From assembly GCA_038060895.1 (NCBI GenBank), contig JBBTCT010000001.1, positions 192,001-256,000 of the forward strand: 64,000 nt of DNA. Reading direction: 5' to 3'. Numbering within the stretch: position 1 is the first letter of the stretch; the number at the start of each line of letters is the position of its first letter. Both the position numbers and the translations under genes were made by a program. This DNA is from Planctomycetota bacterium (GTDB taxonomy: Bacteria > Planctomycetota > MHYJ01 > WSZJ01). The notes beneath the pieces are model-generated. The model did not search any database and was not told where the DNA came from. It saw only the letters and a list, made by a program, of their open reading frames with translations. This document shows positions 32,619-55,813 of the stretch, in pieces.

Positions 32619-32673
32619 AGCTAGCTGAACCCGCGCATCCACGGTCCGTTTAGCCTCTACAATGGCCTCCCCG

Positions 32674-33816
32674 ATGCGCCTCTTCCGAAAAGCCTGGTCC
32701 CGGCGTCCGCGCCTCACGCGCAACGGGCTTTACGTGCTGACGCTCACCGTCATGTCCGGCCAGGTCGCCTTCGTGAACGGCAATAATCTCTTCTGGTTCC
32801 TGTTCTCCTCGGGAGCCGCGCTCCTGCTGTCCAATGCCTGGCTCGGGTGGCGCGGGCTCCGGAAGCTGTCCGTCCGTCGCTCCCTGCCCCAGACCGCTTA
32901 CTCGATGGAGTCCTTCGCCGGCTCCTACCAGGTCACCAACGCCGGCCGCCTCCCGGCGTTCTACGTCATCTTCGAGGACGCCCCGGAACCTCCGCGCGCG
33001 GCCGCCGAGGGCGAGGCCCGTCCGATCTTCGCGTTCGCGGCGTCGATCCCACCGCGCGCGACCGCGACCGTTCCCTTCTGGACCCGCCTCACCATCCGCG
33101 GCTGGAACCGCTTCAATCGTGTCCGCATTTCCTCCGACTTTCCGTTCGGCTTTTTCCGCGTCTCCCGCGACATCGAGTTCCGCGACGAGATCCTCGTCTA
33201 CCCGCGCGTCGGCCGCGTCCTGAGCTCGCTGCCGATGGAGCGCGCCGCGGACGGCATGCTCATCGCCGCCCGACGCGCCCAGCCGGGCGAGGACGACTTC
33301 GCCGGCCTCCACGAGTGGCGCCCCGGCGACAACCCCAAGGCCATCCACTGGCCCTCCTGGGGCCGCTTCCCCGACGACAAGATCCTCGTCCGCGAATACG
33401 AACGCACCCGCGTGCCGCGCGCCTGCCTCCTCATCGACCGCGAGTCGCGCTCCGACCGCCGCTTCGAACAGGTCATCTCCTTCACCGCCGCCAACCTGCT
33501 CGACCTTCACAAGAACGGTGTGGCGACGGCGCTGTGGACGGGAAGCGGCGACACGATGAGTGCGGCGGTGCCGGAGGCCCTGCTGACGGAGCTGGCGACG
33601 CTGAAGCGAGAAGAGCCTGCGGGGACGCATTCAGGGGAGCTGGAGGAGGCGGTGGCGGCGGCGATGGCGGTTGGAGACCTGCCGGTCGTGGTGGGGGACG
33701 GGACTCGCAAGAGGCACAAGGGAGCGTCGTGGGCTGGCGACGTGGTCCTGGTCGACGTGGCGGCGGCTGATTTCCGGGGGCGCTACCAGGTGCGTCCGGA
33801 GAAGGGGGCGCCGTGA
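32674..33816 (+). CDS. DUF58 domain protein
   Basis: N-terminal TM with NN, FPFGFF, VYP, FAGLHEWRPGDNPKAIHW, VREYE. Confidence 0.88.
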   Translation: MRLFRKAWSRRPRLTRNGLYVLTLTVMSGQVAFVNGNNLFWFLFSSGAALLLSNAWLGWRGLRKLSVRRSLPQTAYSMESFAGSYQVTNAGRLPAFYVIFEDAPEPPRAAAEGEARPIFAFAASIPPRATATVPFWTRLTIRGWNRFNRVRISSDFPFGFFRVSRDIEFRDEILVYPRVGRVLSSLPMERAADGMLIAARRAQPGEDDFAGLHEWRPGDNPKAIHWPSWGRFPDDKILVREYERTRVPRACLLIDRESRSDRRFEQVISFTAANLLDLHKNGVATALWTGSGDTMSAAVPEALLTELATLKREEPAGTHSGELEEAVAAAMAVGDLPVVVGDGTRKRHKGASWAGDVVLVDVAAADFRGRYQVRPEKGAP

Positions 33817-35954
33817 TGCTGGACCTGTTGCTGGCGGCGCTCTGGGGACTGGGCGGGCTGATCGGCGCGTTGCCGGAGCGCCGGTTTGAGTGGGTGCTCG
33901 GGCCGCTCGCGGCCGCGGCGTGGGGGATCCTGGCGTCGCGGCTCGGCTTGCGGCAGCTCCTGGTCGGAAGGAATGCCGTGGGGTACGTGTTGCTGGGCGC
34001 CACCTGGGTCGCAGTGTCCGGAATGGCGCTCTCGATGAACTCGCTGAAGGAGTCAATCTTGCCGGCCTGCGCGGCGGCGACCGGGGCGCTGTTCCTGCTC
34101 GAGCGGCGCTCGGCGCTCCAGGGACACGGAATCGTCGGCGCTTCGTTCGTGGCGGCGGTGATCGGCGCGACGCAGGACCCCACGGCGAGAATGCTGCCGA
34201 TGTTCGTGCCGTTCCTGGTCCTGATCGTTCTCTGCCTGGCGCTCTCGCACCAGCAGTGGGTCCTGCAACGGCTCCGCCGCGCCGCACAAGAGGGATACCT
34301 GCTCGCGGCGCAAGTGCCGGGGTACGCCGGGACGCGAACCGGGCTTGCGCCGACCGTCACGGTCGTCGCGCTCACCACCACGGTCGCGTCGATCGTCCTC
34401 TACCTCGTCGTGCCCCATTTCCGCTGGAAGCCGCCCGCCGACAAGCGAGACGCGAACAGCAAGGGCTCCCAGGGCGCCAGCGGGATGACCGACCGGCTGT
34501 CCCTTCGCGCCATGCACGACCTCAAGATGGACCACCGCGTCGCGCTTCGAATGAAGCTTACCCAGGACGGCCGCGCGTTCCGGCCGTCGCTCCCGATGCG
34601 CCTGCGCGGCGCGGTCGTGGACAACAACAACGGCGTCGAGTGGTGGTCCACTGCGGCAAGCCGCACTCGAGTCGACGCCAACGACGGCAAGGCCGACGGC
34701 TGGGTCACCCTCATCGCCGATGCGGGCAACCCGGTCCTGCAGGAATGCGAAATCGAAGCGACGTCGGACCAGACGATTGTAGCGCTTCCGGAAATAGCCG
34801 AGGTCGAAGCGAATCTGGTGAACGTCGACGACCACGGCGTGGTCAGAATCCCGTCGCTGGGCCGCGAAGGACGTGTGCTGTACAAGGTCATTTCGGATGC
34901 GGCGGGGATCGACCCGGCGACGTTTGACGAGAAGCCGAGATCGCCGAACCCGAGGTACCTGCAGATCCTGGGCAGAAAGGACGCCGACATCGTGGCCGTG
35001 GCCAGGGACGTCACCTACGGCGCCGCGACGGCCGCGCGAAAAGCGGCGCTGATCGAACACTGGCTGCAGACGAATTTCGAGTACTCGACCGAGTTCGACC
35101 CGTCGGGCGAATCCGATCCCGTGCGCGCGCTGCTGTTCATCGAAAAGCGCGGCTACTGCGTACACTTCGCGGCCGCGATGGCGGTCATGCTGCGCACGCT
35201 CGATATCCCGTGCCGCATCGCGCAGGGCCTCTACGGCGGCGAATGGTCCGACCGCGAGCAGCTCTCCATGTTCCGCTTCTCGGATGCGCACGCCTGGGTC
35301 GAAGTCTGGCTCGGCCCGCGGGCGGGGTGGGTCCCGTTCGACCCGACGCCGCGGCTCCGGTCCGGAGAAGGAGAAGAGGAGAACCCTGAGGACTTCGCGG
35401 GAGGCGGCCCGGAAGGAGAGAGGCCTCCTCCGCCGCCGCGGGAAGCGAAGAAGCCGGCCAGTTCCTTTTCGACGGAGCCGCTCACGGCCCTCAACCTGGA
35501 GCGCCAGGCACAGTGGCTCCGGTGGCTGCGCAGGCTTTTCGCCAACGCCTGGAACTCGACCTTCGGCCGGGGCGTGGCCTGTTTCATCGCGTTTTCCTTC
35601 TCGCTCCTCATCACCTGGAATCTCCTTCCCCGTCACGAGCGGGACCGCCTCAGCGCGGTCTTCGTCGGCGGCCCCGGCGCTTCGACGGGATTCTGGAACG
35701 AGTTCGTCACCCTCGCGCGGCGTGGCGGGTTCCGTTCGGGCCCGGGGGAGACGCCGTTTGAATTCGCGAAGCGCGTCGAGCGGACGTATCCGGGTGCGGG
35801 GCGGGTGGCGCTCGCGCTGTATGCGGTGAAATTCGGCGGCAAGGACGCGCGCGAGAAGACCGCGGAGGCGCGGCCGGTGCTGGACGCGATCCGGCGGGCG
35901 CAGGCGGGAAAACCGGCGTCCGTCGACGGTCCGGAGACCACGGGCACGAACTGA
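33813..35954 (+). CDS. Membrane transglutaminase-like protein (TgpA/DUF3488 family)
   Basis: Multi-TM N-terminus; GYCVHFAAAM..MLR..IPCR..G; AHAWVEVW...GWVPFDPTP; GETPFEFA (DUF4129-like). Confidence 0.9.
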   Translation: MMLDLLLAALWGLGGLIGALPERRFEWVLGPLAAAAWGILASRLGLRQLLVGRNAVGYVLLGATWVAVSGMALSMNSLKESILPACAAATGALFLLERRSALQGHGIVGASFVAAVIGATQDPTARMLPMFVPFLVLIVLCLALSHQQWVLQRLRRAAQEGYLLAAQVPGYAGTRTGLAPTVTVVALTTTVASIVLYLVVPHFRWKPPADKRDANSKGSQGASGMTDRLSLRAMHDLKMDHRVALRMKLTQDGRAFRPSLPMRLRGAVVDNNNGVEWWSTAASRTRVDANDGKADGWVTLIADAGNPVLQECEIEATSDQTIVALPEIAEVEANLVNVDDHGVVRIPSLGREGRVLYKVISDAAGIDPATFDEKPRSPNPRYLQILGRKDADIVAVARDVTYGAATAARKAALIEHWLQTNFEYSTEFDPSGESDPVRALLFIEKRGYCVHFAAAMAVMLRTLDIPCRIAQGLYGGEWSDREQLSMFRFSDAHAWVEVWLGPRAGWVPFDPTPRLRSGEGEEENPEDFAGGGPEGERPPPPPREAKKPASSFSTEPLTALNLERQAQWLRWLRRLFANAWNSTFGRGVACFIAFSFSLLITWNLLPRHERDRLSAVFVGGPGASTGFWNEFVTLARRGGFRSGPGETPFEFAKRVERTYPGAGRVALALYAVKFGGKDAREKTAEARPVLDAIRRAQAGKPASVDGPETTGTN

Positions 35955-35970: not shown

Positions 35971-37095
35971 ATGCCGGCGGAAAAGAAGCCCCAGGCCCTT
36001 CGAATCCGCGCCCTCGACTGGCACCGCGGCCTCGCGGTCCTGGCGATGGTGGAGTGCCACGCGCTTCTCCTCCTCCACCCTTCGCACGAGCAGGAGCCTC
36101 TTCGGCAGTTCCTGAACTCGATCAACGGCCTGATCGCGCCGTCGTTCATCTTCGCGGCCGGGTTCGCGCTCGCGCTCGTCTCGTGCCGCGCGGCGGTGGA
36201 CCCGCAGGGGCGGCGGGAGCGGGCGGTCAAGACGTTGATGAGGATCGGCGAAGTGCTGGTCGTTTCGAGCCTGCTGAAGTGGATGCTGTGGCCCGTACGG
36301 GACGAGCCGTGGCAGTGGCTGCGGATCGACGTGCTGTCGTGTATCGGCTACTCGCTGCTGGCGCTCTGGGCCTGCGTGTTCTCGCTCGGCAACCGCCCGC
36401 GCATCGTCGCGGCCTCGATGGCCGGCGCGGCGACGCTGATCTTTGCGCTGGCGCCGTGGACCGAGTCGCTCCGCGACCTCGGCCTGCTGCAGTTCTTCGT
36501 GAACAACAAGAGCGGCTCCGAGTTTCCCGTTCTCCCGTGGGCGGGCTACGGTTTCCTCGGAGCGTCGCTCGGCGCGCTGGTCTCGATCCCCGAGCGCGGC
36601 GCACGATTCCTCTGGATCCACCTGACGATCATGTTCGTCGCGGGGGTCGCCGTCGCGAACCTCGGCGGCCTCTGGGACCGCATCTATCCCTGGAGCGCCT
36701 GGATTCTCCAGAACGCCGCCGAGCGAGTCTGGAAAGTCGCCGCGATCGCCCTGGCCCTGCGCGGCGCCGAGGCGTTCGGCACCTCCCGCGGCTGGGCGAT
36801 GAAAAACCCGCTCACGAAACTCCTCGAACACTTCGGCCTCAACTCCCTCTCCGGCTACTTCGCCCAGGCCTGCATCCTCTTCGGCAAGTGGATCGCCCTC
36901 CCCTTCGGCCTCTCCTTCGGCGTCACGGGCTTTACCAGGTGGGCCGGACAGTTCCACTGGACCGGTTTCTGGCTGATGACGCTCGTCGCCATCGCGGGCA
37001 CGGGCGCCTTCTGCTGGGCCTGGAACTTCCTGGACCCGCACCTGCCGTGGCGCAAGTCGTCAAAGAAAGCGGCTCCGGCTCCCAAGCCCGCCTAG
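35971..37095 (+). CDS. DUF1624 / heparan-alpha-glucosaminide N-acetyltransferase-like membrane protein
   Basis: RIRALDWHRGLAVLAMVECH, APSFIFAAG, DVLSCIG, FPVLPW.GY, GLNSL. Confidence 0.8.
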   Translation: MPAEKKPQALRIRALDWHRGLAVLAMVECHALLLLHPSHEQEPLRQFLNSINGLIAPSFIFAAGFALALVSCRAAVDPQGRRERAVKTLMRIGEVLVVSSLLKWMLWPVRDEPWQWLRIDVLSCIGYSLLALWACVFSLGNRPRIVAASMAGAATLIFALAPWTESLRDLGLLQFFVNNKSGSEFPVLPWAGYGFLGASLGALVSIPERGARFLWIHLTIMFVAGVAVANLGGLWDRIYPWSAWILQNAAERVWKVAAIALALRGAEAFGTSRGWAMKNPLTKLLEHFGLNSLSGYFAQACILFGKWIALPFGLSFGVTGFTRWAGQFHWTGFWLMTLVAIAGTGAFCWAWNFLDPHLPWRKSSKKAAPAPKPA

Positions 37096-37112
37096 CAGTT
37101 GGCCGTTTTTCC

Positions 37113-37294
37113 GTCCCGGCGTCGGGCGAAGCGGGGGGCGGGCGGAGCGAGGACGAGGGAGGCGGGGAGTCCCGCCCGGGCGGGCCTGCGAAGACCCTGC
37201 TTCAACCTGCGCCGCGGTGGCCCGCACGGGCGTGGGACTCCCCGCCGACCGACGACGAGCGAAGCCCACCCCCCGCTTCGCCCGATGCCGGGAC
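37113..37294. repeat. 182-bp GC-rich imperfect palindrome
   Basis: Outer 31-bp arms GTCCCGGCGTCGGGCGAAGCGGGGGGCGGGC / GCCCACCCCCCGCTTCGCCCGATGCCGGGAC and inner GGCGGGGAGTCCC / GGGACTCCCCGCC. Confidence 0.75.
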
Positions 37295-37474
37295 CTCCAC
37301 CTCTGCCGTGAAGAGACTGGTACTGAACCTTTTATTTCAGGGGGGAACGGCCCTCTGGCTTCGTGGATCCCCGCAGGGACCGGATCAGCAGGAGGCACTG
37401 GTGTTCCCTATGAATGTTCGTGGTTCACGCCATGTTCTCGATCACGAACAGCGCAGGGGCCCCGGCGTCGGGCG
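37279..37474 (-). ncRNA. ssrS: Probable 6S RNA
   Basis: Rod with UGAACC/GGUUCA and GGGAAC/GUUCCC stems flanking an A/U-rich central bubble; most G-U pairs favour the minus strand; TGcTACAAT promoter upstream. Confidence 0.7.
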
Positions 37475-37507
37475 CCGGGAGGGCGAATCCTCAATGAAGA
37501 GGGTGGA

Positions 37508-37516
37508 ATTGTAGCA
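37508..37516 (-). promoter_or_regulatory. Extended -10 promoter for the putative 6S RNA
   Basis: TGCTACAAT on the minus strand. Confidence 0.55.
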
Positions 37517-37554
37517 GAGGGAAGGACGAGTCCATTCTTTCGGAGTTGATCGCT

Positions 37555-40500
37555 CTACGCTTCTTTTGCCTGCGCCGGCGCGGCCTTGATCGCGCGCACG
37601 ATCTCCGACATCCGCGCCTCGTCCGGCAGCGCGTACGGCCGGAACTTCTCGACGGTCCCCGCCTCCTCCACGAACAGCAGTCCCCGGTACAGGCCGAGCT
37701 TCGCCGCCGCGGGCGTGTCGATCAGCTCGGAAGAATCCGAGCCGCTCATCTGGAACAGGATACGGATGCCGAATTCGCGCAGGGTCTTCATGGAGAAGGT
37801 CCGCTTGAGATTGCCCAGCGAGTCGCACCACACAATGCTGAAAATGCCGCGCGACGGCCCCTCGGTCAGGACGTTGACCATGCACTTGTCGGGGGCCGGC
37901 TTGTCGCCTTCGCTGCCCGACATGTCGTACTCATCCCCCTGCCGAAGTTTTCGAAAGCGCTGCAGGTCGTAGACAAATACGTAGATCGGTGGCGCGCCGG
38001 AACCGCCGGTCTCCTCGCGCGCCTTGAGCTCCGCGTCGAGCTCCTCCATGACCTGCGGGACCTTCGCGTACTCGACCATCTCAATCTCGTGCGGCAGCGA
38101 AGCCGCGAGATCCGGGAGGCGCCGCGCGTCGGAAACTTCCGGCGGAGTCCCGTCGAGCACGACGAAGCGCGCCGTCCTCGGCGCGTGGAGCGACGCCAGG
38201 CTGACGATCGTGGACAGGACGACGGCGAGCGATGACTCGCGCTGCTGCCCGACGATCATGAGATTCGAGCCGGCCTGGCGCTGGAAACGCACCTCCGTCG
38301 GCCCCTTGATCGCATTCGCCTCCCCCACCCACGCTCGCGTCGCCACTCCGGTTTCCGCGACGAACGGCCGCGCCAGCCGCTTCCGCAGCAGGTCATTGTT
38401 GCGGATGTCGGAGGGGAGATTCCCTTCGAAGATCGTCGCCGCCTCGCGCGGCTCCCAGCCCGACCGGTCGGTGAGCTGGCGCAATTTCGAGAGGTACTTC
38501 TCCTCGATCTCGTCGGACATCCAGACGACCTGGAAGGGGCTGTTGCCCTCGAGCATGCCGGACATGTCGTTGTAGATCGCTTCGCCGGGCCGCGACAGCA
38601 GGCGCGCGGCGGCGTTGTCGTCGCCGAGGATGAGGAGGGAGTCGGCTTCGTTGCACTGGAGGGCGATGCGGATCCCCATCTGGCCGAGCGTGGCCTTCGC
38701 CAGGGTGTACGAGCCGCCGAGCGTCTGCGAGCCGAGGATGACGTGGACACCGAACGCGCGACCCTGGCGGACGATGCGGTCGAGCATGAGCGCAGCTTCC
38801 TGGGCGGTCGCGTCTTCCTCGGTGAAGAACTCCTGGAATTCGTCGATGAGGAGAAGGGAGCGCGGGAGCTTGGGGCCTTTCCCGTGTTTCCTGTACCCGG
38901 CGAAATCCTGGACACCGGCCGCCCGGTAGAGCTCGGCGCGTTCGCCCAGGTCGCGGTCGATTTTGCGGAGCACGGACAGCCCGAACTCGCGGTCGGACTC
39001 GATGGCGACGACGCGGGCATGGGGAAGGCGGTGGGTCGCGAAGCGCTTGAACTCGACGCCCTTCTTGAAATCGATCAGGTACAGCTCGAGTTCGCTCGGG
39101 TCGTACCACAGGGCCGAGTTGGTGATCATGACGTGGAACAGGGTCGACTTGCCGGAGCCGGTCTTGCCGGCGATGAGCGCGTGCTGCGCGGTGCCCCGGC
39201 CCAGGTCGAGGTACTGCAGCTTGTCGGCCCCGGACCGGCCGAGCGGGATGCGCACGCCGGTCTCGGAACTCTGGCTGCCCCACTGGCCGTCGGGCGGCGC
39301 GACGGTTTCGAACGGGACCTCGACGCGGCCCGCGGCAGCGCACTGCTTGCCGATGGATTGCAGGAGTGGGGTGAGAACGGCCGACTCGGGCGGCGCCTCG
39401 GGCGGGACGACCGCGCGCGGCAGGATTTCCTCGTCGACGGACACGACGTCGTTGGCGATGGAAAGGACAAGGCCGTGGGGGCGGAACCGCGGCGCCGTGA
39501 ACGCAGCGGGGAACTTCTGGCCGCGCTCGTGGAAGAGCAGCGTGAAGACACCGCAGCGGGCTCCGCTGGCGACGATGCCCGCCAGGCGGTCCATCGCCAT
39601 GTCGCTGAAGCCGCGCGGAAAGTCGGCGATGACGAGGAAGCGGTAGGCCTCGGCCATCTGGCCGACTTCGCGGTTGTATTCGTCGATGGAGGCGTAGCGG
39701 TTGCGCAGGTACTTCTGGATGACCTTCTCGATATGCTCGGTCAGCTCGGAGAGTTTCTTCTCGATATGCGCGGGCTCCGTCCAGATCCGCCCGCCGACGA
39801 GCGACTCGTCATCGTCCGCGAGATGCATGAGCGCGGAAAAACTCTGGCCGAGGCCGACCGGGTCCACGAACAGGAACTTCGCCTTCGCGGCGGGAAACGC
39901 CGCGAGCGTCCGGAGCACGGCTCCCGAGACGGTCTCGACCGCCCGCGCGCGGCTTTTCGCATCCGTGCTCACCAGCATGTTCCCGCGCTCGGGGAACGTC
40001 AGCGACAGCGGCAGCGCGAGACGTCCGTTGTCGGGAAGCGAAAACGGTTCCCCGCTCCCCCTCGCCCCCGCGAAGGGACTGAAATCCACGACGGCGTCGC
40101 CCAGGCGGACCGTCGCCGGGAATACCTCCGCCATCCGGTAGTCCCGCCACGAAGAATCGCTCCAGGGCGGAATCTGCTTCAGCCCGTGCGCGCGCGCTTC
40201 TTCCACCGCCTGCATGAACCCGCCGACCGTCTCCGACCAGTCTGCCGCGAGCTTTTGCCGCACCGTCGCGCCCTTCGAGAGAGCCTCGTTCCCGCCCTTC
40301 GACTGCGCGGCGCGGTAGTTCTCCATCTCCTTCCGGTGCCGGTCTTCGGCCGCTCTGGATTCCGCTTCGAAGCGCGTCTCCACGCCAGCCATGCGTTGCG
40401 CATTCCGGCGGCGGACGCGCTCGAGCAACCCCGCGTGCTTCTTCTTCAGCATCTCGATCCGCGGCGCGGCAGCCTTCTTCGCCTCTTCCAGCCCGGTTTC

Positions 40501-41481
40501 CAGCTGCTCGTCAAGATCCGCGACCGCGCCGATCTTGTCTTCCAGCCCCTTCTCGCGGCCCGCCGCGATCCGCTTTCCCACCAGCTCCTCGTGGCTCTTG
40601 AGTTCCGACGTCATTTCAGCGGCGCGGCCGCGAAGGCCGCTGACCAGGTCGCGCGCCTTCGAGCGCAGGGCGTGGAGAGTCGCGAACGCGATGACGAGCG
40701 AGCCGGCGAATACGAGCGGGACCAGCACCGTCGCCCGCTCCTCGAGGTCCGGCCTGAGGAAGTGAATGCCGGCGAAGGCGCCGCCGTGAAGCAACGCCAG
40801 GAGAATGACGGCCGACAGGTAGGAGAAAGTCCGCACCAGGAACAGCCAGAATTCGCGCTTCCGGTACTGCAGGAGGCGCGTCTCCTCGAGAAGCCCCTGT
40901 TTCACCTGGGCGGCAATCTTGTCGGACGCTGCTTCCTGGAAGCGCCCCTGCGCGGCGATGACGTCTTCGGGGCGGACTCTCACGCTGCGGGCAAACACTT
41001 CGACCTCGCCGCGCCATTCCTCCGTTTCTTTCCGGATCGTCACGATTCCTGCGAGCAGCCCGTCCAGCTGCCGGGTCAGCTTCGCCTGCATCTCGTGCAT
41101 CGAATGAAGCGACCGGTCGCGGGCCGTCGCCTGCTCCTTTTTCAGCCGATCGATCTGGCCCGTGAGCTTCCCCTGCGCCCGCTTTGTTGCCGTCTCGAGC
41201 GCCCTGTCCACGGCGGCGAGCCGGCGCGAACCGGCCTCCTGGGCGCGCCGCCGCGCTTCGTCGTGCCGGGCCTTCAGTTCTTTCCGCCGCGCGTCCAGCT
41301 CGCCGGAAAGCTTTGCCGTCGCCTTCGCGAAGGTGTCGTCCTCGTCGCGTTTCTTCCCCGCGGTCCCCCGGTCGGACTCGTCCCGCGCCTCGACGATCTC
41401 CTTCAGCCGCTTCTCGAACTCCGCGACCCGCGCCCGAAGCGCGTCCATTCCCAGCGCCCCCGTGCGGTCGCTCAACTGCAT
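37555..41481 (-). CDS. FtsK/SpoIIIE-family (EssC/EccC-like) membrane ATPase with long coiled coils
   Basis: Two TM helices; HALIAGKTGSGKST, LIDFKKGVEF, LLIDEFQ, RQGRAFGVHVILGSQ; two flanking degenerate ATPase-like domains. Confidence 0.9.
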   Translation of the reverse strand: MQLSDRTGALGMDALRARVAEFEKRLKEIVEARDESDRGTAGKKRDEDDTFAKATAKLSGELDARRKELKARHDEARRRAQEAGSRRLAAVDRALETATKRAQGKLTGQIDRLKKEQATARDRSLHSMHEMQAKLTRQLDGLLAGIVTIRKETEEWRGEVEVFARSVRVRPEDVIAAQGRFQEAASDKIAAQVKQGLLEETRLLQYRKREFWLFLVRTFSYLSAVILLALLHGGAFAGIHFLRPDLEERATVLVPLVFAGSLVIAFATLHALRSKARDLVSGLRGRAAEMTSELKSHEELVGKRIAAGREKGLEDKIGAVADLDEQLETGLEEAKKAAAPRIEMLKKKHAGLLERVRRRNAQRMAGVETRFEAESRAAEDRHRKEMENYRAAQSKGGNEALSKGATVRQKLAADWSETVGGFMQAVEEARAHGLKQIPPWSDSSWRDYRMAEVFPATVRLGDAVVDFSPFAGARGSGEPFSLPDNGRLALPLSLTFPERGNMLVSTDAKSRARAVETVSGAVLRTLAAFPAAKAKFLFVDPVGLGQSFSALMHLADDDESLVGGRIWTEPAHIEKKLSELTEHIEKVIQKYLRNRYASIDEYNREVGQMAEAYRFLVIADFPRGFSDMAMDRLAGIVASGARCGVFTLLFHERGQKFPAAFTAPRFRPHGLVLSIANDVVSVDEEILPRAVVPPEAPPESAVLTPLLQSIGKQCAAAGRVEVPFETVAPPDGQWGSQSSETGVRIPLGRSGADKLQYLDLGRGTAQHALIAGKTGSGKSTLFHVMITNSALWYDPSELELYLIDFKKGVEFKRFATHRLPHARVVAIESDREFGLSVLRKIDRDLGERAELYRAAGVQDFAGYRKHGKGPKLPRSLLLIDEFQEFFTEEDATAQEAALMLDRIVRQGRAFGVHVILGSQTLGGSYTLAKATLGQMGIRIALQCNEADSLLILGDDNAAARLLSRPGEAIYNDMSGMLEGNSPFQVVWMSDEIEEKYLSKLRQLTDRSGWEPREAATIFEGNLPSDIRNNDLLRKRLARPFVAETGVATRAWVGEANAIKGPTEVRFQRQAGSNLMIVGQQRESSLAVVLSTIVSLASLHAPRTARFVVLDGTPPEVSDARRLPDLAASLPHEIEMVEYAKVPQVMEELDAELKAREETGGSGAPPIYVFVYDLQRFRKLRQGDEYDMSGSEGDKPAPDKCMVNVLTEGPSRGIFSIVWCDSLGNLKRTFSMKTLREFGIRILFQMSGSDSSELIDTPAAAKLGLYRGLLFVEEAGTVEKFRPYALPDEARMSEIVRAIKAAPAQAKEA

Positions 41482-41687
41482 TCCTTTCTCGCCCTGCGCA
41501 GGACTTCCTCGATGCGCTGGATCGCCGTGGTCGCCGTCTTCATCGAAGGGAAAAGCCCAGCCAGGTAGTCGCGCTCAAAGTCGTTGCGCGCGTCGTCGTT
41601 CCAGACGGTGCGCGTCTGCTCCCACTGCGCCTGGAGATCCTTGAGCGCCTTCGCCATGATCGCGTCGTTGCCTCCGCCTTCCATCAC
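41472..41687 (-). CDS. Small WXG100-like protein
   Basis: 71 aa, helical, W...RTVWNDDARNDFE; overlaps both neighbouring genes. Confidence 0.75.
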   Translation of the reverse strand: MMEGGGNDAIMAKALKDLQAQWEQTRTVWNDDARNDFERDYLAGLFPSMKTATTAIQRIEEVLRRARKECS

Positions 41688-42184
41688 GCCTTCCCCGGCG
41701 GAATGTGCCCGAAATACTCTTCCAGTTTCTCCACCATCACGTCCAGCCGCGCCAGAGCCCGCGGCGTCGTGCCCTCGAGAAGGATCGAGAAGGCCTTGAG
41801 CGAAGCGAGGGACTTTTCGACCTCGGCGTCAAACAGCACCGCCCATTTCTTCGTCCGCTCGAGCATCGACTCGACCTCCTCCTTCTTCCTCTTCTCACGG
41901 TCCAGCGCTTTCTTCGCGTCGATCGTCGCTTGCGAGGCCTTGCCGGAGGCCGTGAAGCGCGCCCGGTTGTACTCGTTCTGGGCGAGGTTGACCGCATTTT
42001 CGCTGCGGCGCATTTCCTGCTTGAGCTGGACCTGGCGCTCGCCTTTCAGCCATTCGGACGTGCGCTTGATCGACGCATCGACGGCCATCAGGGTGTTGCG
42101 GCAGGTGTTGTCGAACGCGACGTAACGGCCGCGGAAGTGCCGGATGACTTCCGGCGAATCGATGCGTGCGGAGCCCTGGGACAT
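41684..42184 (-). CDS. Coiled-coil protein of the WXG100/FtsK locus
   Basis: MSQGSARIDSPEVIRHFR..., all-helical 166 aa, starts 7 nt after the WXG100 stop. Confidence 0.78.
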   Translation of the reverse strand: MSQGSARIDSPEVIRHFRGRYVAFDNTCRNTLMAVDASIKRTSEWLKGERQVQLKQEMRRSENAVNLAQNEYNRARFTASGKASQATIDAKKALDREKRKKEEVESMLERTKKWAVLFDAEVEKSLASLKAFSILLEGTTPRALARLDVMVEKLEEYFGHIPPGKA

Positions 42185-42191
42185 GGATGCG

Positions 42192-42464
42192 CTACCTCTG
42201 GTCCAGGTACTCCTTGATGCGCTCCGCCTTGCGCAGCAGGAACGGGACGTGCTTGTCGGCGGCGTCCGCAAATTTGGCAAGGGCCCGGATCATCTGCTCG
42301 AACTGCTCCGCGAACTTCGCCTGCTCCTGGTCCTGCCACGTCTCGCCGAGTTTCACGAAACGGTGGTGGAGGGAGGAGATTTCGCCCTTGAGGTCATTAT
42401 TGAAGCGCTTGAGGTCGGCCGCGAAGCGGCGCAGCTCCTCGGGGTCAACGACTGCTCTGGCCAT
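42192..42464 (-). CDS. WXG100/ESAT-6 family protein
   Basis: 90 aa MARAVVDPEELRRFA...GETWQDQEQAKF, helix-turn-helix with a central W. Confidence 0.88.
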   Translation of the reverse strand: MARAVVDPEELRRFAADLKRFNNDLKGEISSLHHRFVKLGETWQDQEQAKFAEQFEQMIRALAKFADAADKHVPFLLRKAERIKEYLDQR

Positions 42465-42564
42465 GGGGGCGGGCTCCGGAAGGATTGCCACTATGTTGAA
42501 TGGGGCGGGGGGGCAAAACAAGGGGGAAGTGGAGGACCCTCTATCGCGGCTGCAAGTTGCGTCG

Positions 42565-42682
42565 TATCCGCGGCTGTTTCCGCGGGATCAGGCTGTTATC
42601 CGCGTATTCCTTTGCCGTTTTTCAAAAGAGAACAAGGGAATACGCGGATAAAAGAATGATTTCGCGGAAACAGCCGCGGATA
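42565..42682. mobile_element. TA-bounded palindromic MITE/REPIN-like element, copy 2
   Basis: TATCCGCGGCTGTTTCCGCG...TTATCCGCGTATTCC...GGAATACGCGGATAA...CGCGGAAACAGCCGCGGATA. Confidence 0.65.
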
Positions 42683-42696
42683 AGGCCGCTTCCGAA

Positions 42697-43806
42697 CTAC
42701 CGACTTCGCCCCGCCGTCCACAAGTAGTAGAACCCGTCCCGTCGTCCCACCAGCTTCTCAATCGACATCGCCACGGCCGCTTCCGGCGACGGCGCCTTTG
42801 AGTCCCCGCGCAGCAGGTCCGCGAACGTCGGCGGCCGCTGATACTGGATCAGCCTCGCGTCCTTGACGCCCGCCAGGTTCTTCGCCACTTCGACCGCGTC
42901 TTCGAACTGTCCCAGCTCGTCGACGAGCCCGTTCGCCTTCGCCTGCCCCCCGGAGTAGATCCTGCCGTCGGCGAGCAGCCGCACTTTCTTCTCGTCCATT
43001 CCCCGTCCCTTCGACACGACGTCCACGAAGCGGTCGTACATCTCCATCAGCATCGACTGGAGCATGGCGCGTTCTTCATCCGTCATGGGGCGCCCCATCG
43101 AGCCGATGTCCTTGTGATCGCCGCTCTTGATGACCTCTTCCTTCACTCCGACTTTCTCAAACAGGCCCTGGAGATTCATGAAGGACATGATCACGCCGAT
43201 GGACCCCGTGATCGCGGTGGGGCTGGCGAGAATCCGGTCGCAGGGAGCCGAGACGTAATAGCCGCCCGAAGCCGCGACGGAACGCATGTAGGACACGAAC
43301 TTGAGGTTCGGGCGCTCTTTCTTGAGCTTCATGATTTCGTAGTGGATCCGGTCGCAATCCGTGATGCCTCCGCCGGGCGAGTCGACGTCGAGGATGACGG
43401 CGACGATGCTGGAGTCGTCTTTCACGCGCCTCAGGTCCTTGATGATCTTGTCGACCATGTCCACGTTCGGGCCGAAGAGGGACGCCGAGCCGGAGGCGAT
43501 GATTCCGTGGACGGGAATGACGGCGATTTTGTTGTCCGAACCCGCGGGCCCGTCCACGTGTCTCTCTACGGTGCCGTCGGCCTGGAATCCGCCCGCGCCG
43601 CCGAGGGCGCCGAGCAGCATGAGGAACATGACCACGTTCAGGCCCAGGCTGCCGATGAGGGTGAGAGTCATCAGGCAGGAGCCGATTCCGAACCCGGCAC
43701 GCCTCGTCGGAGGCTGAGGCGGCAGCGACGGCCACGAGCCCATGGGGGGAGGAGGAGCTCCCGGGGGAAGCGGTCCCTGGGGCGGCGGTGCGGCAGGATC
43801 GCTCAT
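42697..43806 (-). CDS. sppA: Signal peptide peptidase SppA (S49, short form)
   Basis: [42 protein letters not shown]. Confidence 0.92.
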
Positions 43807-44309
43807 TTCCGGGCTCCTTTGGACTTCGCCTTCTTCTTCGCCGGCGCCTTGACGCCTCCACGGCGCCGCGCGACCTCCTCGCGGATGTAGTTCACGATCT
43901 CACCCCCGGTCGTGCCGGGCCCGAACAGTTTCCCGACGCCCAGCCTGCGCAGCGCCGCGTCGTCCTCGGGCGGGATGATGCCGCCTCCGGTCAGTAGGAC
44001 GTTTCCGAGCCCCTTCTCCTTCATGAGCTTTCGCACCTTCGGAAACAGAGTCATGTGCGCGCCCGAGAGAATCGACAGGCCGAGCGCCTCGACGTCCTCC
44101 TGGAGCGCCGCCTCGACGACCTGTTCGGGCGACTGGTGAAGGCCGGTGTAGATGACCTCCATCCCCGCGTCGCGCAGGAGGCACGCGATGACCTTCGCGC
44201 CCCGGTCGTGGCCGTCCAGGCCGACCTTGGCGACAAGGACGCGGATTTTCCGTTCGGGGCCGGGCGCCGCCACGGGGGCGGCCTTGCTACCAGTAGATGG
44301 GTGGCTCAC
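43803..44309 (-). CDS. Methylmalonyl-CoA mutase, cobalamin-binding subunit
   Basis: [26 protein letters not shown]; GTG start inferred after a GGGGAG SD. Confidence 0.9.
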
Positions 44310-45978
44310 GGTACTCCCCATAAACGCCCTGCAGCACGTCGCACATCTCACCGAGAGTCACATGGTTCTTCGCGGCCTCGAGGAAGCGCGGCATCAGGTT
44401 CTCCGTCCCCGCCGCCGCCTCGCGAATCGCGTTCAGGCAGCGCTTGACCGCCGCCATGTCGCGTTTCTTTTTGAACGCCAGCACGTCCTTGACCTGCCGC
44501 CGTTCGGCCGACATCGGAACTTTCAGCAGGTCCATCTTCTCTTCACCGTCGTCCACAAACTGGTTCACGCCGACGACGACGTTTTCGCCGCGGTCGACCT
44601 TGAGCTGGAACTCGTAGGCTGAACGCGCGATCTCGCGCTGGAAGAACCCCTTCTCGATCCCGACCTCGCACCCGTCGAGAATCCCGCCCGTGCCGAGTTC
44701 CTCGATCCGTTTGAAATACGCCTCGGCCTCGCGCTCCATCTGGTCGGTCATCCATTCCACGTAGTACGAGCCCGCGAGCGGGTCCACGGTGTCGGCGACG
44801 CCCGTTTCGTGGGCGATGATCTGCTGGGTACGAAGCGCGATCTTGACCGCCTTTTCCGTCGGCAGCGCCAGGGCTTCGTCCATCGAGTTCGTGTGAAGCG
44901 ACTGCGTCCCGCCGAGGACCGCCGCCATCGCCTCGTATGCCGTGCGGACGATGTTGTTCTCGGGCTGCTGCGCCGTGAGCGAGCACCCCGCGGTCTGGGT
45001 GTGGAAACGCATCTTCCAGCTCGCCGGGTCCTTCGCGCCATAGACGTGCTTCATCCGCTTCGCCCAGATCCGGCGCGCGGCACGGAACTTGGCGATTTCC
45101 TCGAAGAAGTTCATGTGCGAATTGAAGAAGAACGAGAGGCGCGGCGCGAACGAGTCGACGTCGAGCCCGGCCTTGATCCCTGCCTCGACATACGCGAACC
45201 CGTCACCGAGCGTGAACGCGAGTTCCTGCACCGCGGTCGATCCCGCCTCGCGGATGTGGTACCCGGAAATCGAAATCGGGTTCCACTTCGGCGTGTGCTT
45301 CGTGCACCACGCGAACATGTCCGTGATGATCCGCATGGCCGGCTTGACGGGGAAAATCCACTCCTTCTGGGCGATGTACTCCTTGAGGATGTCGGTCTGC
45401 GTGGTGCCTCGGATCTCGCTGAGGTCGGCGCCCTGTTTCTCCGCGACGGCGACGTAGAACGCGAAGACGATCGCCGCGGGAGCGTTGATCGTCATCGACG
45501 TCGAGACCTTCGACAGGTCGATCCCGTCGAACAGCACTTCCATGTCCCTCAGGCAGCAGATCGCCACGCCCTCGCGCCCGACTTCGCCGAGCGCGCGCGG
45601 AGCGTCGCTGTCGACGCCCATCAGCGTCGGCATGTCGAACGCCACCGAAAGCCCCGTCTGGCCCTTCGAGAGCAGGAACTTGTACCGCTCGTTGGTGTCG
45701 TGCGCCGTCCCGAACCCCGCGAACTGCCGCATGGTCCACAGCCGGCCGCGGTACATGTTGGGTTGCACGCCGCGCGTGTAAGGGAATTCTCCGGGCTTCC
45801 CGACGTCCTTCGCCAGGTCGCGCGCCTTCGCGGATTCCGGCCCGTAAAAGACGTCGAGAGGAACGCCGGTCTCAGTCGTCCACGCTTTCTTCGGCGCGGG
45901 AGTGGACTTCGCGGCACGGCCTTCATCAGGCCGCGCGGCCGATTCCGACCGCGACGGCGACGCCTTGAATTCCTGCAT
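44287..45978 (-). CDS. Methylmalonyl-CoA mutase family, catalytic subunit
   Basis: [48 protein letters not shown]. Confidence 0.94.
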
Positions 45979-45992
45979 GGTCCCCCCCTTCG

Positions 45993-46958
45993 TTATCTCG
46001 CGAGTCGAGCCGCTCGACGCGGCGTTCCCAGCGTCAACCGGTCCAGCACTTCCTCCGCAGCATCCCCGGGCGTCAGCTTCCCCGCCAGCACGTCCTCGAC
46101 ACGCCCCTCCAGCCACGCCGCCGCCGCCGGGTCGTGCGCCAGCCGGCGCGACAGCGCTTCCTCGACCAGCCTTGCGATCCTGAAGCGCAGTCGCGCAGCG
46201 CGGTGATCACGCAGCGTGCCGTCGCGCTCCATTTTCTCCGTGTGGGCCTCGATCGTGGAAGCGGCTTCGGCGATGCCCTTTCCGGTCGCCGCTGCAGTCT
46301 GGACGATGGCGGGGGCGCGGCGGCTTGTCGAAAGCTCGAAGCTGGAACGGATGGAGGACTCGAGCGCGTCGGCGCCTGCCCGGTCGGCCTTGTTGATGAC
46401 GATGACGTCGGCGATCTCCATGAGGCCCGACTTCATCGCCTGGACGCCGTCGCCCGATTCGGGCGAGAGAATCACGATCGTCGTGTCCGCGACCCGCACG
46501 ATCTCGATTTCGCTCTGGCCGACGCCGACGGTTTCGACCATGACGATGTCCTTGCCGGAAGCGTCGAGCACGTCGCAAGCGTCGTACGTCGCGCGCGCCA
46601 GGCCGCCCAGCGCCCCGCGCGTCGCCATCGAGCGGATGAAGACCCCGGGGTCCATGCCGACGGAGTTCATGCGGATCCGGTCGCCGAGCAGCGCGCCGCC
46701 CGTGAACGGGCTCGACGGGTCCACGGCCACGATCCCGACGGTCCTGTTTTTCGAGCGCCAGTGCTTCGCCAGCTCGCTCACGAGCGTGGACTTCCCCACC
46801 CCGGGAGGCCCCGTGAACCCGATCCGCCGCGCATGCCCCACCCGCGGATAGAGCTCTTCCAGAAGCTCCCGGGCTCCCGCATCGCCGTTTTCGACACTGG
46901 TGATCGCGCGGGACAGGGCGCGACGGTCGCCGGACACGACGAGGGAGGCGAGGGACAT
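45993..46958 (-). CDS. meaB: MeaB/ArgK GTPase (mutase chaperone)
   Basis: [45 protein letters not shown]. Confidence 0.94.
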
Positions 46959-47110
46959 GGAAGGGTGATCATAGCGCAGGGCGAAGGGCAGGGAAAGAGG
47001 GCCGCACTGGGTGCGTGGCCGGTGTTGCGAAGGCCTCCGGGCAGGCGGCGGCCCGTAGCGAAAAAAGACAACTTCAACCTTCTGCTGTCCCGGCGAGGCC
47101 CCCCAGCGTC

Positions 47111-48670
47111 TCAACGGCTAATCATGACTCGCACCCTGTCCCCCCACCTCAGGGTCAGGTCCGCCTTCCCGTCCCCGTTCATCTCCCAGATGTCCATTCC
47201 GTCCGGAGCGTCGATTTTCCCCTCGTCCTTCTTGTCGTTCACGTTGAACTTGAATATGTCCGTCTTGTCGAAATCGACCGGCGACTTCTTCAGCAGCGCC
47301 TTCACTTCAATCCCCTTCGCCGCCGAAAGCCACCCGTCGCTGTCGAGCCGCAGAATGTCCCTGCGGCCGTCGCCGTCCCAGTCGCCGTTGAAGCGCAGCT
47401 GGGGCATCCCGCCGCCCTTGTTCATCTTGTCGATGTCGACGTAGATGGTGTCCTTCCAGTCGTATTCCGCGGCGTACGACTGCTTGTTTTTGTCGAAGAG
47501 GTAGATGAAGTACTCGACCGGGACCTTCTGGAATACGACCTTGCCCGCGTTGGAAAGCATGCTGGTTTCGAAGCTCGCGATCGCGATGTCGTCGAACCCG
47601 TCGGCGTTCAGGTCCTCGAGCTGGGGGTTGAGGGAAATCCCCGGAAGAGAGATGCGCCAGTTCGGGGAGAGATTCGCCAGTGCCTGCCCTCGGTTCCCGA
47701 GGTACATGTAGTAGTCGGTCGCGATCGCGTCGAGCTTCGAAAGCTCGCCGCGGGTGAAGCTCGCGACGAAATCGACTCCCCCGCCGCGGTTCACGTCCTT
47801 CAGCGTCGTAATCGCCGTGGCGATCTGGTCCTTCCGCTCGCGCTGCTGAAGGAACTGAAGCTGGAACTGCCCGCTCGGCTCCGAGGGGAACGCGATCCGG
47901 GCTCCTCCGTCCTCCCCCTTCTCCGTCCCCTGCAGGAAGAACACGAACTTGTCGTGCCACACCATGCACACGTCCTGCTTGAAATCTCCGTCCACGTCCT
48001 GGAACTCCACGCGCGGAACCGACTTCACCACGCGCACCCAGGCCGCGCCTCCTTCGGGCGACTCCGACGCCGAGGGCATCGCCAGCGTAAACGCCCGCCC
48101 GTAGACCCCCGGCTTCGTCTGCACGTACAGCCGGTAGGCATCGCTCTGCGGAATCAGCAGGTCCGTCAGTCCGTTACCGTCGAGATCCGGCGGCCACATC
48201 CAGATGGGGAACGAATCTTCCTGCGGCAGGTCGAAAAACGTCTCCACCAGAAGCAGCCGCTTCGCCGCGAGATCGTATTTCCGGTCCTTCTGCTCCCAGA
48301 CCCACGCGCCATCGGCGGCGAGATACCCGATCTCGGTCCCGGGAGACTCCGTGAAATTCCCGAACAGCATCACGGCCGCTTCCGCCGGCACAATCCACGT
48401 CTGGTCCGGCTTCCCGTCCATCGCCTGCCCCGAGACCTGCCACTTCACCGAAACATACCGCGTCGCACGCTTGTCCCCGTCGTGCCCGAAACTCGTGTGC
48501 GTCGCGAGCAGGTCGCCTTTGCCGTCGCCGTCCAGGTCGCAGGGAAAGACGTCCTGGATCTTTCCTTCGTAGCGGACCAGGCCTTCGCTGAAGCGCTCGC
48601 GGTGGAGTTCCTGCGGAAAGGCCGGTAGGGAGAAGAGGAGGGAAACGGCGACGAGGAAGCGTCGGGGCAT
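47111..48670 (-). CDS. Secreted FG-GAP/VCBS repeat protein
   Basis: Signal peptide; DLDGDGKGDLL, DLDGNGLTDLL, DLNADGFDDI, DWDGDGRRDIL. Confidence 0.85.
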   Translation of the reverse strand: MPRRFLVAVSLLFSLPAFPQELHRERFSEGLVRYEGKIQDVFPCDLDGDGKGDLLATHTSFGHDGDKRATRYVSVKWQVSGQAMDGKPDQTWIVPAEAAVMLFGNFTESPGTEIGYLAADGAWVWEQKDRKYDLAAKRLLLVETFFDLPQEDSFPIWMWPPDLDGNGLTDLLIPQSDAYRLYVQTKPGVYGRAFTLAMPSASESPEGGAAWVRVVKSVPRVEFQDVDGDFKQDVCMVWHDKFVFFLQGTEKGEDGGARIAFPSEPSGQFQLQFLQQRERKDQIATAITTLKDVNRGGGVDFVASFTRGELSKLDAIATDYYMYLGNRGQALANLSPNWRISLPGISLNPQLEDLNADGFDDIAIASFETSMLSNAGKVVFQKVPVEYFIYLFDKNKQSYAAEYDWKDTIYVDIDKMNKGGGMPQLRFNGDWDGDGRRDILRLDSDGWLSAAKGIEVKALLKKSPVDFDKTDIFKFNVNDKKDEGKIDAPDGMDIWEMNGDGKADLTLRWGDRVRVMISR

Positions 48671-55073: not shown

Positions 55074-55793
55074 ATGCGCAAGACGATGGTGATCAGCTCG
55101 CTTATGCTGGCGTTGTGTTCGCTTCAGGTCCGCGCCCAGGCGATGGAAGTCATGGACACCACGATGTCCTACATGGACGTCGGGGCGCTGAAGGGCGGGG
55201 AGTGGGTCGAGATGGAGTCGATCATGGAGTACGGCGGCGCCAAGCAGCCCGCGACCAAGTCCAAGACGGCGTGCGTCAAGGTCGATGGGGACCACGTGTG
55301 GATCGAGACCTCGGCCGCTGACGTGGTGACCTGCTACCAGATCGCCAAGAAGGACCGCAAGATCGTCAAGGCCTGGTCGGGCAAGGCCGGAGAAGAAGGC
55401 AAGGAACTTACCGTGAAGCCGGCACCGGCCCCTGGCGCGACGCCGACCCCCACGTACGAGATGTCCGGGACGCGCAAGGTCTCCAAGGAGAAGCTCACCC
55501 TGGGCGGCAAGGAATTCGACTGCGAAAAGATCGACCAGGAAACGACGATGAAGATGAAGGGCATTCCGGATACGAAGTCGAAGTCGACCATGTGGTTCAG
55601 CGATGGCTACCCCTTCAAGTCCTACGTCGACAAGGACGCGAAAGAAGTGAAGGATCCGACCAAGTGGGAAGGCGACAAGCCGACCTACCCGGGTGGGATG
55701 GTCAAGATGGTGAGCGAGGGGACCGGCTACAGCATGACGCAGCAGGTGTCCGGCATCGGCACCGATGCGAAGCCCAGCCTGAAAATGAAGTAA
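55074..55793 (+). CDS. Secreted hypothetical protein, paralog family member 1
   Basis: AGGAG SD, signal peptide, GEWVE...ACV.VD.D.VWIE...G.DAKP.L. Confidence 0.82.
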   Translation: MRKTMVISSLMLALCSLQVRAQAMEVMDTTMSYMDVGALKGGEWVEMESIMEYGGAKQPATKSKTACVKVDGDHVWIETSAADVVTCYQIAKKDRKIVKAWSGKAGEEGKELTVKPAPAPGATPTPTYEMSGTRKVSKEKLTLGGKEFDCEKIDQETTMKMKGIPDTKSKSTMWFSDGYPFKSYVDKDAKEVKDPTKWEGDKPTYPGGMVKMVSEGTGYSMTQQVSGIGTDAKPSLKMK

Positions 55794-55813
55794 GACCGGA
55801 TGCGATCAACTCG

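Follow-up and report, generated by a model that had tools for sequence, protein, structure and literature searches.

What do an EccC-like motor and WXG100 hairpin proteins do when they stand alone, and what purpose do they serve in bacteria with an outer membrane that contains lipopolysaccharide (LPS)? A natural minimal system that raises both questions is encoded by a four-gene module in a 64,000-nucleotide stretch of the genome of a member of the Planctomycetota (assembly GCA_038060895.1, contig JBBTCT010000001.1, positions 192,001 to 256,000 of the forward strand; hereafter, the window, to which coordinates refer unless a locus is named). To our knowledge, experimental work on type VII secretion systems (T7SS) is confined to Actinomycetota and Bacillota, in which several other membrane proteins always operate alongside the ATPase. 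All T7SS share two components, an EccC/EssC ATPase and a WXG100 protein (PMC11217815, PMC10765036), and both T7SSa and T7SSb require further membrane parts (PMC11217815). We propose, with a probability of about 0.5, that the module is the form taken in the Planctomycetes-Verrucomicrobia-Chlamydiae (PVC) group by a minimal WXG100 plus EccC/EssC-like system, which resides on the chromosome and has a phylogeny that fits vertical inheritance.

The four genes occupy positions 37555-42464 on the minus strand, in the order A, C, B, ATPase. Gene A (42195..42464, stop codon 42192-42194) encodes a WXG100 protein of 90 aa; gene C (41687..42184, stop codon 41684-41686), read from the ATG at 42184, a protein of 166 aa that is modelled as a two-helix hairpin and belongs to no family; gene B (41475..41684, stop codon 41472-41474), a protein of 70 aa from the ATG at 41684 or 71 aa from the GTG at 41687; and the last gene (37558..41481, stop codon 37555-37557), an EccC/EssC-like ATPase of 1308 aa. 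Genes A and C are 7 nt apart, the stop codon of C overlaps the start of B, and B overlaps the start of the ATPase gene by 10 nt, so that translational coupling of the four genes is suggested by their overlapping or nearly abutting frames. An earlier note, made from the letters of this DNA without database searches, had described these tightly packed genes as encoding a WXG100 protein with a W-x-D centre, a 166-aa coiled coil, a 71-aa W-N-D protein and a 1308-aa membrane FtsK ATPase. All four are where it placed them, and the observation is confirmed.

Protein A matches the Pfam WXG100 family PF06013 at E 4.8e-11, with 43.2 bits against a gathering cut-off of 27.3. Like members of the WXG100 superfamily, it is about 100 aa long and is predicted to fold as a helix-turn-helix hairpin with a tryptophan at the turn. 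Its centre motif, W43-Q-D45, is located at this predicted turn and takes the form W-[QRS]-D among the homologues described below, W-x-D (not W-x-G) being invariant in all 64 A sequences. The best match among all solved structures is HP0062 of Helicobacter pylori (PDB 3fx7), which aligns end to end with E 3e-9 for the single sequence and 7.4e-14 for the family profile, followed by Bacillus anthracis EsxB and Staphylococcus aureus EsxA. In 63 of 64 loci, A has a length of 90 aa; its mean column identity across two phyla is 70%, and JGI records label its homologues "YukE". We therefore assign A, from sequence, as a true WXG100 protein, closest to HP0062.

Protein B, which carries the motif W-N-D and ends in ...KECS, falls below the thresholds of the relevant families (TIGR03930, E 1.1e-5; PF06013, E 0.036), and its best PDB matches are weak hits to WXG100 proteins (S. 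aureus EsxA, E 0.03). The hidden Markov models (HMMs) of A and B give weak cross-matches, and when a profile of 64 A sequences was compared with one of 65 B sequences, the two matched at a probability of 82.5% (E 9.9e-6) and their W-x-D motifs aligned. The motif is invariant in 65 of 65 B sequences, the mean column identity being 40%. B is thus a diverged WXG100-like paralogue of A. None of A, B and C has a signal peptide or a hydrophobic, potentially membrane-embedded segment.

Protein C is modelled as one long hairpin of two helices of about 70 residues each (AlphaFold2, 66 sequences, predicted local distance difference test (pLDDT) 91.9; helices 11-78 and 85-159). The protein from the window has no Pfam or NCBIfam family above cut-off and no PDB sequence match, and its mean column identity among homologues is only 20%. 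A Foldseek search of the model against the PDB returned no matches at E<=0.001, only generic long hairpins; the nearest, non-significant fold neighbours include the Vipp1/PspA and ESCRT-III hairpins and chemoreceptor bundles, and a TelA-LXG chain (8gmh_C) appears at rank 40 with E 0.38. When its profile was compared with those of A and B, C showed no relation to either. Prediction of an A+B+C complex with C as the scored partner gave a high score, and a control in which chain A was replaced scored equally high.

The C family is large, with 3230 members at E<=0.001 among 1.84 billion cluster representatives, and falls into two length classes; in the Protein Atlas, it corresponds to unnamed PVC clusters and one cluster with an Imm33-like domain. 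Among 66 C homologues scanned against Pfam, no family was found except this Imm33-like add-on (PF24719, E 1e-14 to 4e-6), which is fused to C in five sequences of about 350 aa from a Phycisphaerae/Tepidisphaeraceae lineage. These fusions, of about 355 aa, are located at L023:4890-5960, L028:5559-6632, L032:5930-7000, L053:5648-6709 and L079:5447-6526. Of 20 long C homologues, 14 carried an Imm33-like domain, 6 carried nothing recognizable and none carried a toxin domain. We considered C as an LXG-like carrier of polymorphic toxins and rejected this assignment, the long homologues holding an Imm33-like domain or nothing.

The ATPase comprises six regions. Residues 1-210 (40852..41481, minus strand, as are all the following) make up a poorly conserved, presumably cytoplasmic N-terminal coiled coil, in which 46% of the residues are E, K, R, D or Q; this region gives weak coiled-coil-type matches (ATP synthase b, a three-helix bundle, an apolipoprotein) and no alignment consensus. 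Residues 211-272 (40666..40851) include two predicted transmembrane helices (211-241 and 251-272), connected by the 8-residue loop RPDLEERA, with Kyte-Doolittle values of up to 2.28 in 19-residue windows. The flanks of this hairpin are rich in K and R, so most of the protein to either side of it should lie in the cytoplasm. Residues 273-439 (40165..40665) are a second charged and poorly conserved helical region (40% charged or Q). In the PDB profile search, positions ~270-440 match the amphipathic helices of apolipoproteins A-I and A-IV (E about 4e-6 to 1e-5); these matches are probably compositional, or they may mark helices lying on the membrane surface.

Three FtsK-like domains follow. Domain I (residues 440-720, 39322..40164) is degenerate, with GSLLxETxxxGR at the P-loop position and without the Walker A lysine. 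Domain II (residues 729-1010, 38452..39297) has the sole canonical Walker A and Walker B motifs: GKTGSGKS at residues 772-779 (bases 39145-39168), the only occurrence of the Walker A pattern in 1308 aa, and IDEF with D880 and E881. The Walker residues of domain II are invariant in 23 of 23 and 54 of 54 homologues, and the domain aligns with D1 of EccC (4nh0 residues 276-461; EccC5 residues 490-666). Domain III (residues 1039-1308, 37558..38367) is degenerate as well, with VGQxEE replacing Walker A, and terminates in an invariant EKFRPY. Judging by these motifs, domain II is predicted to be the only one capable of ATP hydrolysis. An AlphaFold2 model of residues 440-1308 built from 54 sequences (pLDDT 83.6, predicted template modelling score 0.75) displays three alpha/beta domains.

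Is this ATPase a T7SS motor or a DNA translocase? It does match the Pfam FtsK_SpoIIIE family (PF01580, E 9e-30), the same family that FtsK belongs to, and the public records of its homologues bear names such as "DNA segregation ATPase", "cell division protein FtsK", "DNA translocase FtsK", "AAA family ATPase" and "DUF87 domain-containing". An FtsK/SpoIIIE-type DNA translocase for segregation, division or conjugation, with the small proteins as accessories, is accordingly what the Pfam family and these names would favor, and we consider it highly improbable. The NCBIfam models EccCa, EccCb and EssC score 103, 100 and 81 bits (E 1e-29 to 4e-23), compared to 19 bits (E 2e-4) for FtsK, whose cut-off is 1566. 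In a PDB profile search with 23 homologues, Thermomonospora curvata EccC (4nh0) was found at E 3.6e-36, EccC5 at 2.3e-26 and Bacillus subtilis YukB at 1e-25, with FtsK motors at about 1e-6 (128 bits for EccC vs 30 for FtsK). Foldseek with the model of residues 440-1308 retrieved the three-ATPase cytoplasmic domain of EccC at E 2.4e-29 over 966 columns, then EccC D2-D3 and EssC D2-D3 (4.5e-17); the FtsK motor followed at about 2e-10, through one domain and about 330 columns. Furthermore, no FtsK 4TM, alpha or gamma domain from Pfam was listed for the ATPase even at E<=1; there are three tandem domains as in EccC, compared with the single motor domain of FtsK; and the operon is shared with a WXG100 protein.

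At least one planctomycete also has an FtsK of its own: Planctopirus limnophila encodes a separate, essential protein of the 750-900 aa class with 46% identity to Escherichia coli FtsK (PMC6952346). The module ATPase as the planctomycete "essential FtsK" was rejected on this account, that FtsK being a different protein of ordinary size (PMC6952346, PMC12283558). Thus, we hold firmly that the ATPase is not an FtsK, and many of the FtsK-type labels on its homologues in PVC genomes are probably wrong or misleading; clustering with DNA translocases, which the earlier note had named as an outcome that would overturn its reading, was not found, EccC/EssC being closest by HMM, PDB profile and fold alike. 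At the same time, the scores are far under the EccC/EssC equivalog cut-offs (103 vs 509 bits), so that the ATPase is a relative rather than an orthologue of EccC or EssC. In terms of gene content, the module then combines the two elements that define the T7SS core, namely, a predicted membrane-bound EccC/EssC-type ATPase and a co-encoded WXG100 protein.

How widespread is the module? A search with the C-terminal part of the ATPase detected at least 7999 homologues, with length held near 1300 aa, in records named for Planctomycetota, Phycisphaerales or Lentisphaerae. A scan of genome contigs yielded at least 501 confirmed relatives, and we analyzed 79 loci among the matches listed, from Planctomycetota (Phycisphaerae, Tepidisphaeraceae, Isosphaeraceae, Gemmatales, Pirellulales, Kuenenia) and Verrucomicrobiota (Prosthecobacter, Pedosphaera, Chthoniobacter, Akkermansiaceae, Limisphaerales). 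Nine of these loci end at the ATPase, leaving 70 with upstream DNA. Of these, 64 contain a recognizable A, 65 a C and 68 a B, and the complete trio is present in 64, always on the ATPase strand and in the order A-C-B-ATPase. Given the same order and strand in 64 of 70 loci, this arrangement is not due to chance, and the synteny across PVC genomes that the earlier note had suggested checking is, in these two phyla, evident. The exceptions are L018, L019 and L073, in which neither A nor C was detected, L026, without a detected A, and L039 and L041, in which none of the three was found; in L039, a gene identified by eye as dihydrouridine-synthase-like lies upstream in place of the trio. In L049, the trio is about 5.9 kb upstream of the ATPase.

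No other conserved neighbor was found when flanking open reading frames (ORFs) of at least 100 aa were clustered: the largest other family occurs in 7 of the 79 loci, and the bigger clusters consist of module genes or antisense shadow ORFs over the module. In the window, the scanned neighbors (Pfam/NCBIfam) included no EssA, EssB, EsaA, EccB, EccD, EccE, MycP, toxin or immunity families, and no Rhs or LXG families. Both the absences listed in the earlier note and its description of the system as stripped-down are thus borne out. The C-terminal part of the ATPase has a mean column identity of 52%, and in 64 of the 70 loci the membrane hairpin is separated from the motor by a constant distance; in the remaining 6, it is absent.

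In a FastTree phylogeny of 54 ATPases, 23 sequences from Planctomycetota and that of the window are split with support 100 from 26 Verrucomicrobiota rows, on whose side four rows not labelled as Verrucomicrobiota also fall (L040, titled Bifidobacterium, and L066, titled Klebsiella, both names from other phyla; L013, Candidatus Acidoferrum; and L009, "uncultured bacterium"). The tree is unrooted and omits 25 of the 79 loci, in which the ATPase is incomplete or outside the 840-900-residue length window. Its shape fits vertical descent or one ancient transfer. L040, L066 and L013 nest within the Verrucomicrobiota clade, and L041, which bears a Candidatus Aquilonibacter title, is not in the tree; the odd titles of these four loci probably reflect mislabelled bins rather than transfer. 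Together, these findings show firmly that the module is real, ancient and self-contained and that it shares its ancestry with the T7SS core; we regard its homology to that core and its status as a conserved module as very likely.

How might such a module work? In the mechanism we envisage, the ATPase would form a hexamer, as in FtsK-family and EccC ATPases, with 12 helices holding it in the cytoplasmic membrane; a helical bundle of A, B and probably C would be engaged by the domains on the cytoplasmic side, and domain II, by turning over ATP, would push these proteins, which have no signal peptide, into the inner membrane or through it to the periplasm, with no dedicated outer-membrane step. 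We infer such export from the family kinship of the components, the membrane anchor in most lineages, and the signal-less hairpin proteins encoded tightly beside the motor, and consider the transport of A, B and C across the inner membrane as the actual activity to be just short of an even bet. The earlier note had proposed a T7SS variant exporting to the periplasm or acting in membrane remodelling or stress: the homology to the core parts stands, and the export is to be taken in the tentative sense just given. The high conservation of the module, together with the lack of toxins, suggests a housekeeping function in the envelope rather than warfare.

Several observations weigh against a translocon. 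The ATPase is the sole conserved membrane protein, contributing two helices and an 8-residue outer loop, and nucleotide-binding motifs are present in only one of its three ATPase domains; its scores, as noted, are far below the equivalog cut-offs. YxxxD/E is the C-terminal secretion signal of T7SSa substrates, and among the last 40 residues it occurs in none of 64 A, 1 of 65 B and 7 of 66 C sequences; the 70% identity of A is unusually high for a secreted protein. Immunity proteins of toxin systems are cytoplasmic, and it is a domain of the Imm33-like family, named after such proteins, that is fused to C in the Phycisphaerae-type loci. Six Prosthecobacter-type loci (L012, L019, L042, L043, L044 and L056) encode an orthologous ATPase without any hydrophobic segment (maximum 19-residue hydropathy 0.66-1.01 in the three inspected) and retain A, C and B in five of six cases, which weakens a strict translocon reading. 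The membrane-less ORFs are about 1220 aa long and start near 7100-7160 (3791 in L043), and represent a natural soluble variant of the motor. Finally, membrane-less EssC homologues are known from intracellular defense operons, where "a different mechanism" has been suggested (PMC11090510).

The main rival reading is a non-secretory machine, in which the ATPase, tethered in most lineages and soluble in some, would remodel, assemble or disassemble cytoplasmic bundles of A, B and C for membrane remodelling, stress or defense signalling, and the WXG100 proteins would be clients or adaptors instead of cargo. Beyond the membrane-less orthologues in 6 of 70 loci, the Imm33-like fusion in one lineage and the very high conservation of A, such a role is compatible with the approximately 380 residues of coiled-coil-type sequence that flank the hairpin, with the Vipp1/PspA, ESCRT-III and chemoreceptor bundles among the fold neighbors of C, and with the CoCoNuT/TerY-P operons, in which equivalent membrane-less EssC homologues accompany two WXG100 genes and another mechanism was proposed (PMC11090510). 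However, all WXG100/EccC-type pairs of tested function are secretion systems (PMC10765036, PMC11217815), the spacing between hairpin and motor is constant in 64 of 70 loci, and C shows only generic fold resemblances, with no match at E<=0.001. On balance, we consider a non-secretory role less likely than export but a serious rival to it. A far less probable alternative is that the module is a T7SSb-like interbacterial weapon that exports toxins encoded elsewhere, or a mobile anti-phage defense island. T7SSb systems secrete LXG toxins along with small WXG100-like partners (PMC10765036, PMC9600955), WXG100/FtsK-like operons accompany the TerY-P and CoCoNuT defense systems and have been called likely mobile (PMC11090510, PMC4978471), and Imm33-like is an immunity-type domain name. 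Yet toxin, immunity, Rhs and LXG families are missing both from the scanned window neighbors and from what is conserved across the 79 loci, the long C homologues lack variable toxin domains, PADLOC produced generic FtsK/HerA-type matches for the ATPase and nothing for A, B or C, the chromosomal context is one of housekeeping genes (for aromatic amino acids, leucyl-tRNA synthetase and methylmalonyl-CoA mutase), and the ATPase tree follows phylum boundaries, unlike that of a mobile element.

A bolder proposition, which we rate as rather unlikely, takes one of two forms. In one, the module would belong to the T7SS lineage as an old, vertically transmitted member with a housekeeping task, and the ATPase would be its sole membrane part; protein conduction in a classical LPS diderm would then require no more than a bare EccC-like hexamer. 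In the other, at which the membrane-less Prosthecobacter forms hint, the module would not be a translocon. The WXG100/EccC pair would originally have served the ATP-driven handling of helical-hairpin assemblies at the inner membrane, and secretion would be a later specialization of Gram-positive lineages.

The surroundings of the module in the window are those of an ordinary chromosome, with a GC content of 62-71% per 2-kb block. On the A side, the module adjoins sppA (identified with Pfam), and the 232-bp intergenic region between the sppA stop codon and the start of A (42465..42696, minus strand) is, by its position alone, the presumed promoter region. A promoter scan of 36900-42800 found no sigma-70-like site, and terminator-like sites in the same interval were no more frequent than expected from shuffled sequence. 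Immediately upstream of sppA is a split methylmalonyl-CoA mutase set (43803-47114, minus strand), consisting of the B12-binding subunit (43803-44351), the catalytic subunit (44287-46116) and the MeaB GTPase (45993-47114); these ORFs overlap as called, and the real starts are probably further in. Past the end of the ATPase gene, on the plus strand and thus convergent with the module, lie genes for an HGSNAT-like acyltransferase, a TgpA transglutaminase and MoxR. Within this group, the MoxR AAA ATPase, a 384-aa protein of no family and the TgpA-type transglutaminase membrane protein form a tight same-strand cluster (31635-35954) that is not kept beside the module in other loci.

The earlier note had taken gmhB and TonB as signs of an outer membrane, and both matches hold in this diderm lineage: a GmhB-like phosphatase at 7984-8532 (PRK08942, E 5.3e-48, 163 bits, slightly below the cut-off of 178) and a TonB_C protein at 59529-60410 on the minus strand (E 6.1e-21). 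Housekeeping genes include those for aromatic amino acids and tryptophan, leucyl-tRNA synthetase and the methylmalonyl-CoA mutase with MeaB, and further genes encode a Mur ligase, a Ser/Thr kinase and the DUF1570 typical of planctomycetes. The aromatic run (9333-24058) contains chorismate synthase, prephenate dehydrogenase, a tautomerase, DAHP synthase, chorismate mutase, TrpA, IGPS, TrpD and TrpE, along with a fused dehydroquinase/shikimate dehydrogenase and three no-family ORFs (11664-12302, 12369-12677 and 15489-16847). The Ser/Thr protein kinase, which has a C-terminal double zinc ribbon, lies at 3498-5258 on the plus strand, 32 kb from the module; kinase regulation is known for some T7SS variants (PMC11217815), and no kinase is kept beside the module. 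Elsewhere, three successive ORFs of 239, 249 and 267 aa (55074-57427, plus strand) and a convergent ORF of 421 aa (57436-58701, minus strand) match no Pfam or NCBIfam family.

The earlier note called the system uncharacterized, which is correct as far as experiment goes; in print, pairs of this kind in Gram-negative bacteria had been noted before. According to a 2023 review, WXG100 sequences next to an FtsK/SpoIIIE protein are found, in limited numbers, in some Gram-negatives; no published test of export was found for Gram-negative members, which the review gives as "not yet been confirmed functionally" (PMC10765036). Sutcliffe 2011 is cited for such pairs (PMC6471051, PMC10765036) and, by PMC6471051, for WXG100 proteins in Verrucomicrobiae. 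A 2024 survey that defines T7SSc-j covers Actinomycetota and Bacillota only, and its available portions mention neither Planctomycetes, Verrucomicrobia nor diderms (PMC11217815). Neither PMC6471051 nor PMC3113570, in their available portions, describes a PVC module of four genes, the partners B and C, conservation throughout the phyla or a membrane-less clade, and the latter paper uses WXG100- and type VII-related terms in unrelated contexts; in the supplement of PMC12283558, the Verrucomicrobium spinosum orthologue was not found by product name. The module ties together scattered notes in print, those on WXG100 proteins of Verrucomicrobia and Lentisphaerae, on HP0062/HP0066 and on the CoCoNuT-associated EssC homologues.

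Among characterized systems, T7SSa (ESX) resembles the module in several respects: EccC is the best sequence and fold match of the ATPase, and a pair of WXG100 paralogues is encoded upstream. In EccC, a string of cytoplasmic FtsK-like domains comes after two membrane helices, a layout that the ATPase of the module is predicted to share. In contrast to EccC, with its four FtsK-like domains (PMC10765036), a DUF domain and the nucleotide-binding D1-D3, the module ATPase has three, one of them active, together with a 210-residue coiled coil, and there is no YxxxD/E and no EccB, EccD, EccE or MycP among the neighbors. T7SSb is represented by EssC and YukB among the best ATPase matches, and the combination of a long hairpin with two small WXG100-like proteins recalls the LXG-Lap ternary complexes, a resemblance and nothing more. 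The differences are that matches to FHA domains, EssA, EssB, EsaA and EsaB/YukD were not found (Pfam/NCBIfam), the N-terminus being a coiled coil instead, and that C has neither a toxin domain nor polymorphic C-termini and no detected sequence relation to A or B. With FtsK/SpoIIIE, the ATPase shares the P-loop superfamily and the Pfam family of the active domain, and differs from it in its much weaker scores, the lack of alpha, gamma and 4TM domains, the three tandem domains in place of one, and the WXG100 partners.

The nearest described relatives are two arrangements known from other Gram-negative or defense-related contexts. HP0062, a dimeric protein of solved structure (PDB 3FX7/2GTS) with a W-R-D turn that clusters with an FtsK/SpoIIIE protein (PMC3397514), resembles A in its end-to-end alignment, its W-x-D turn, its Gram-negative host and the clustered ATPase. 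HP0062/HP0066 are listed as a "WXG100 secretion system", WxG plus FtsK being called the minimal T7SS set (PMC4978471), and the function of HP0062 is given as unknown (PMC3397514, PMC4978471). The listing for the H. pylori cluster also names a DnaK homologue and an HNH nuclease (PMC4978471), neither of which is kept beside the PVC module. The second arrangement is an operon attached to TerY-P triads and Type III-A CoCoNuT systems (Bell et al. 2024, PMC11090510). Its EssC homologues have three ATPase domains, of which the central one alone is predicted to be active; their N-terminal coiled coil exceeds 200 residues, and they lack membrane helices. The operon, which can stand alone, includes two WXG100 genes (one atypical) and a coiled-coil fusion protein (PMC11090510). 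Compared by published description, the window ATPase and small genes fit each of these points apart from the membrane helices, absent from those ATPases and present as a hairpin in the window ATPase and in 64 of 70 loci, with six lacking it. Further differences are the restriction-endonuclease-like domain on their coiled-coil protein, of which C has none, and the position of the PVC module outside any defense operon. Gram-negative WXG100/FtsK-like operons are thus already in print, and the PVC module is the membrane-anchored form of these.

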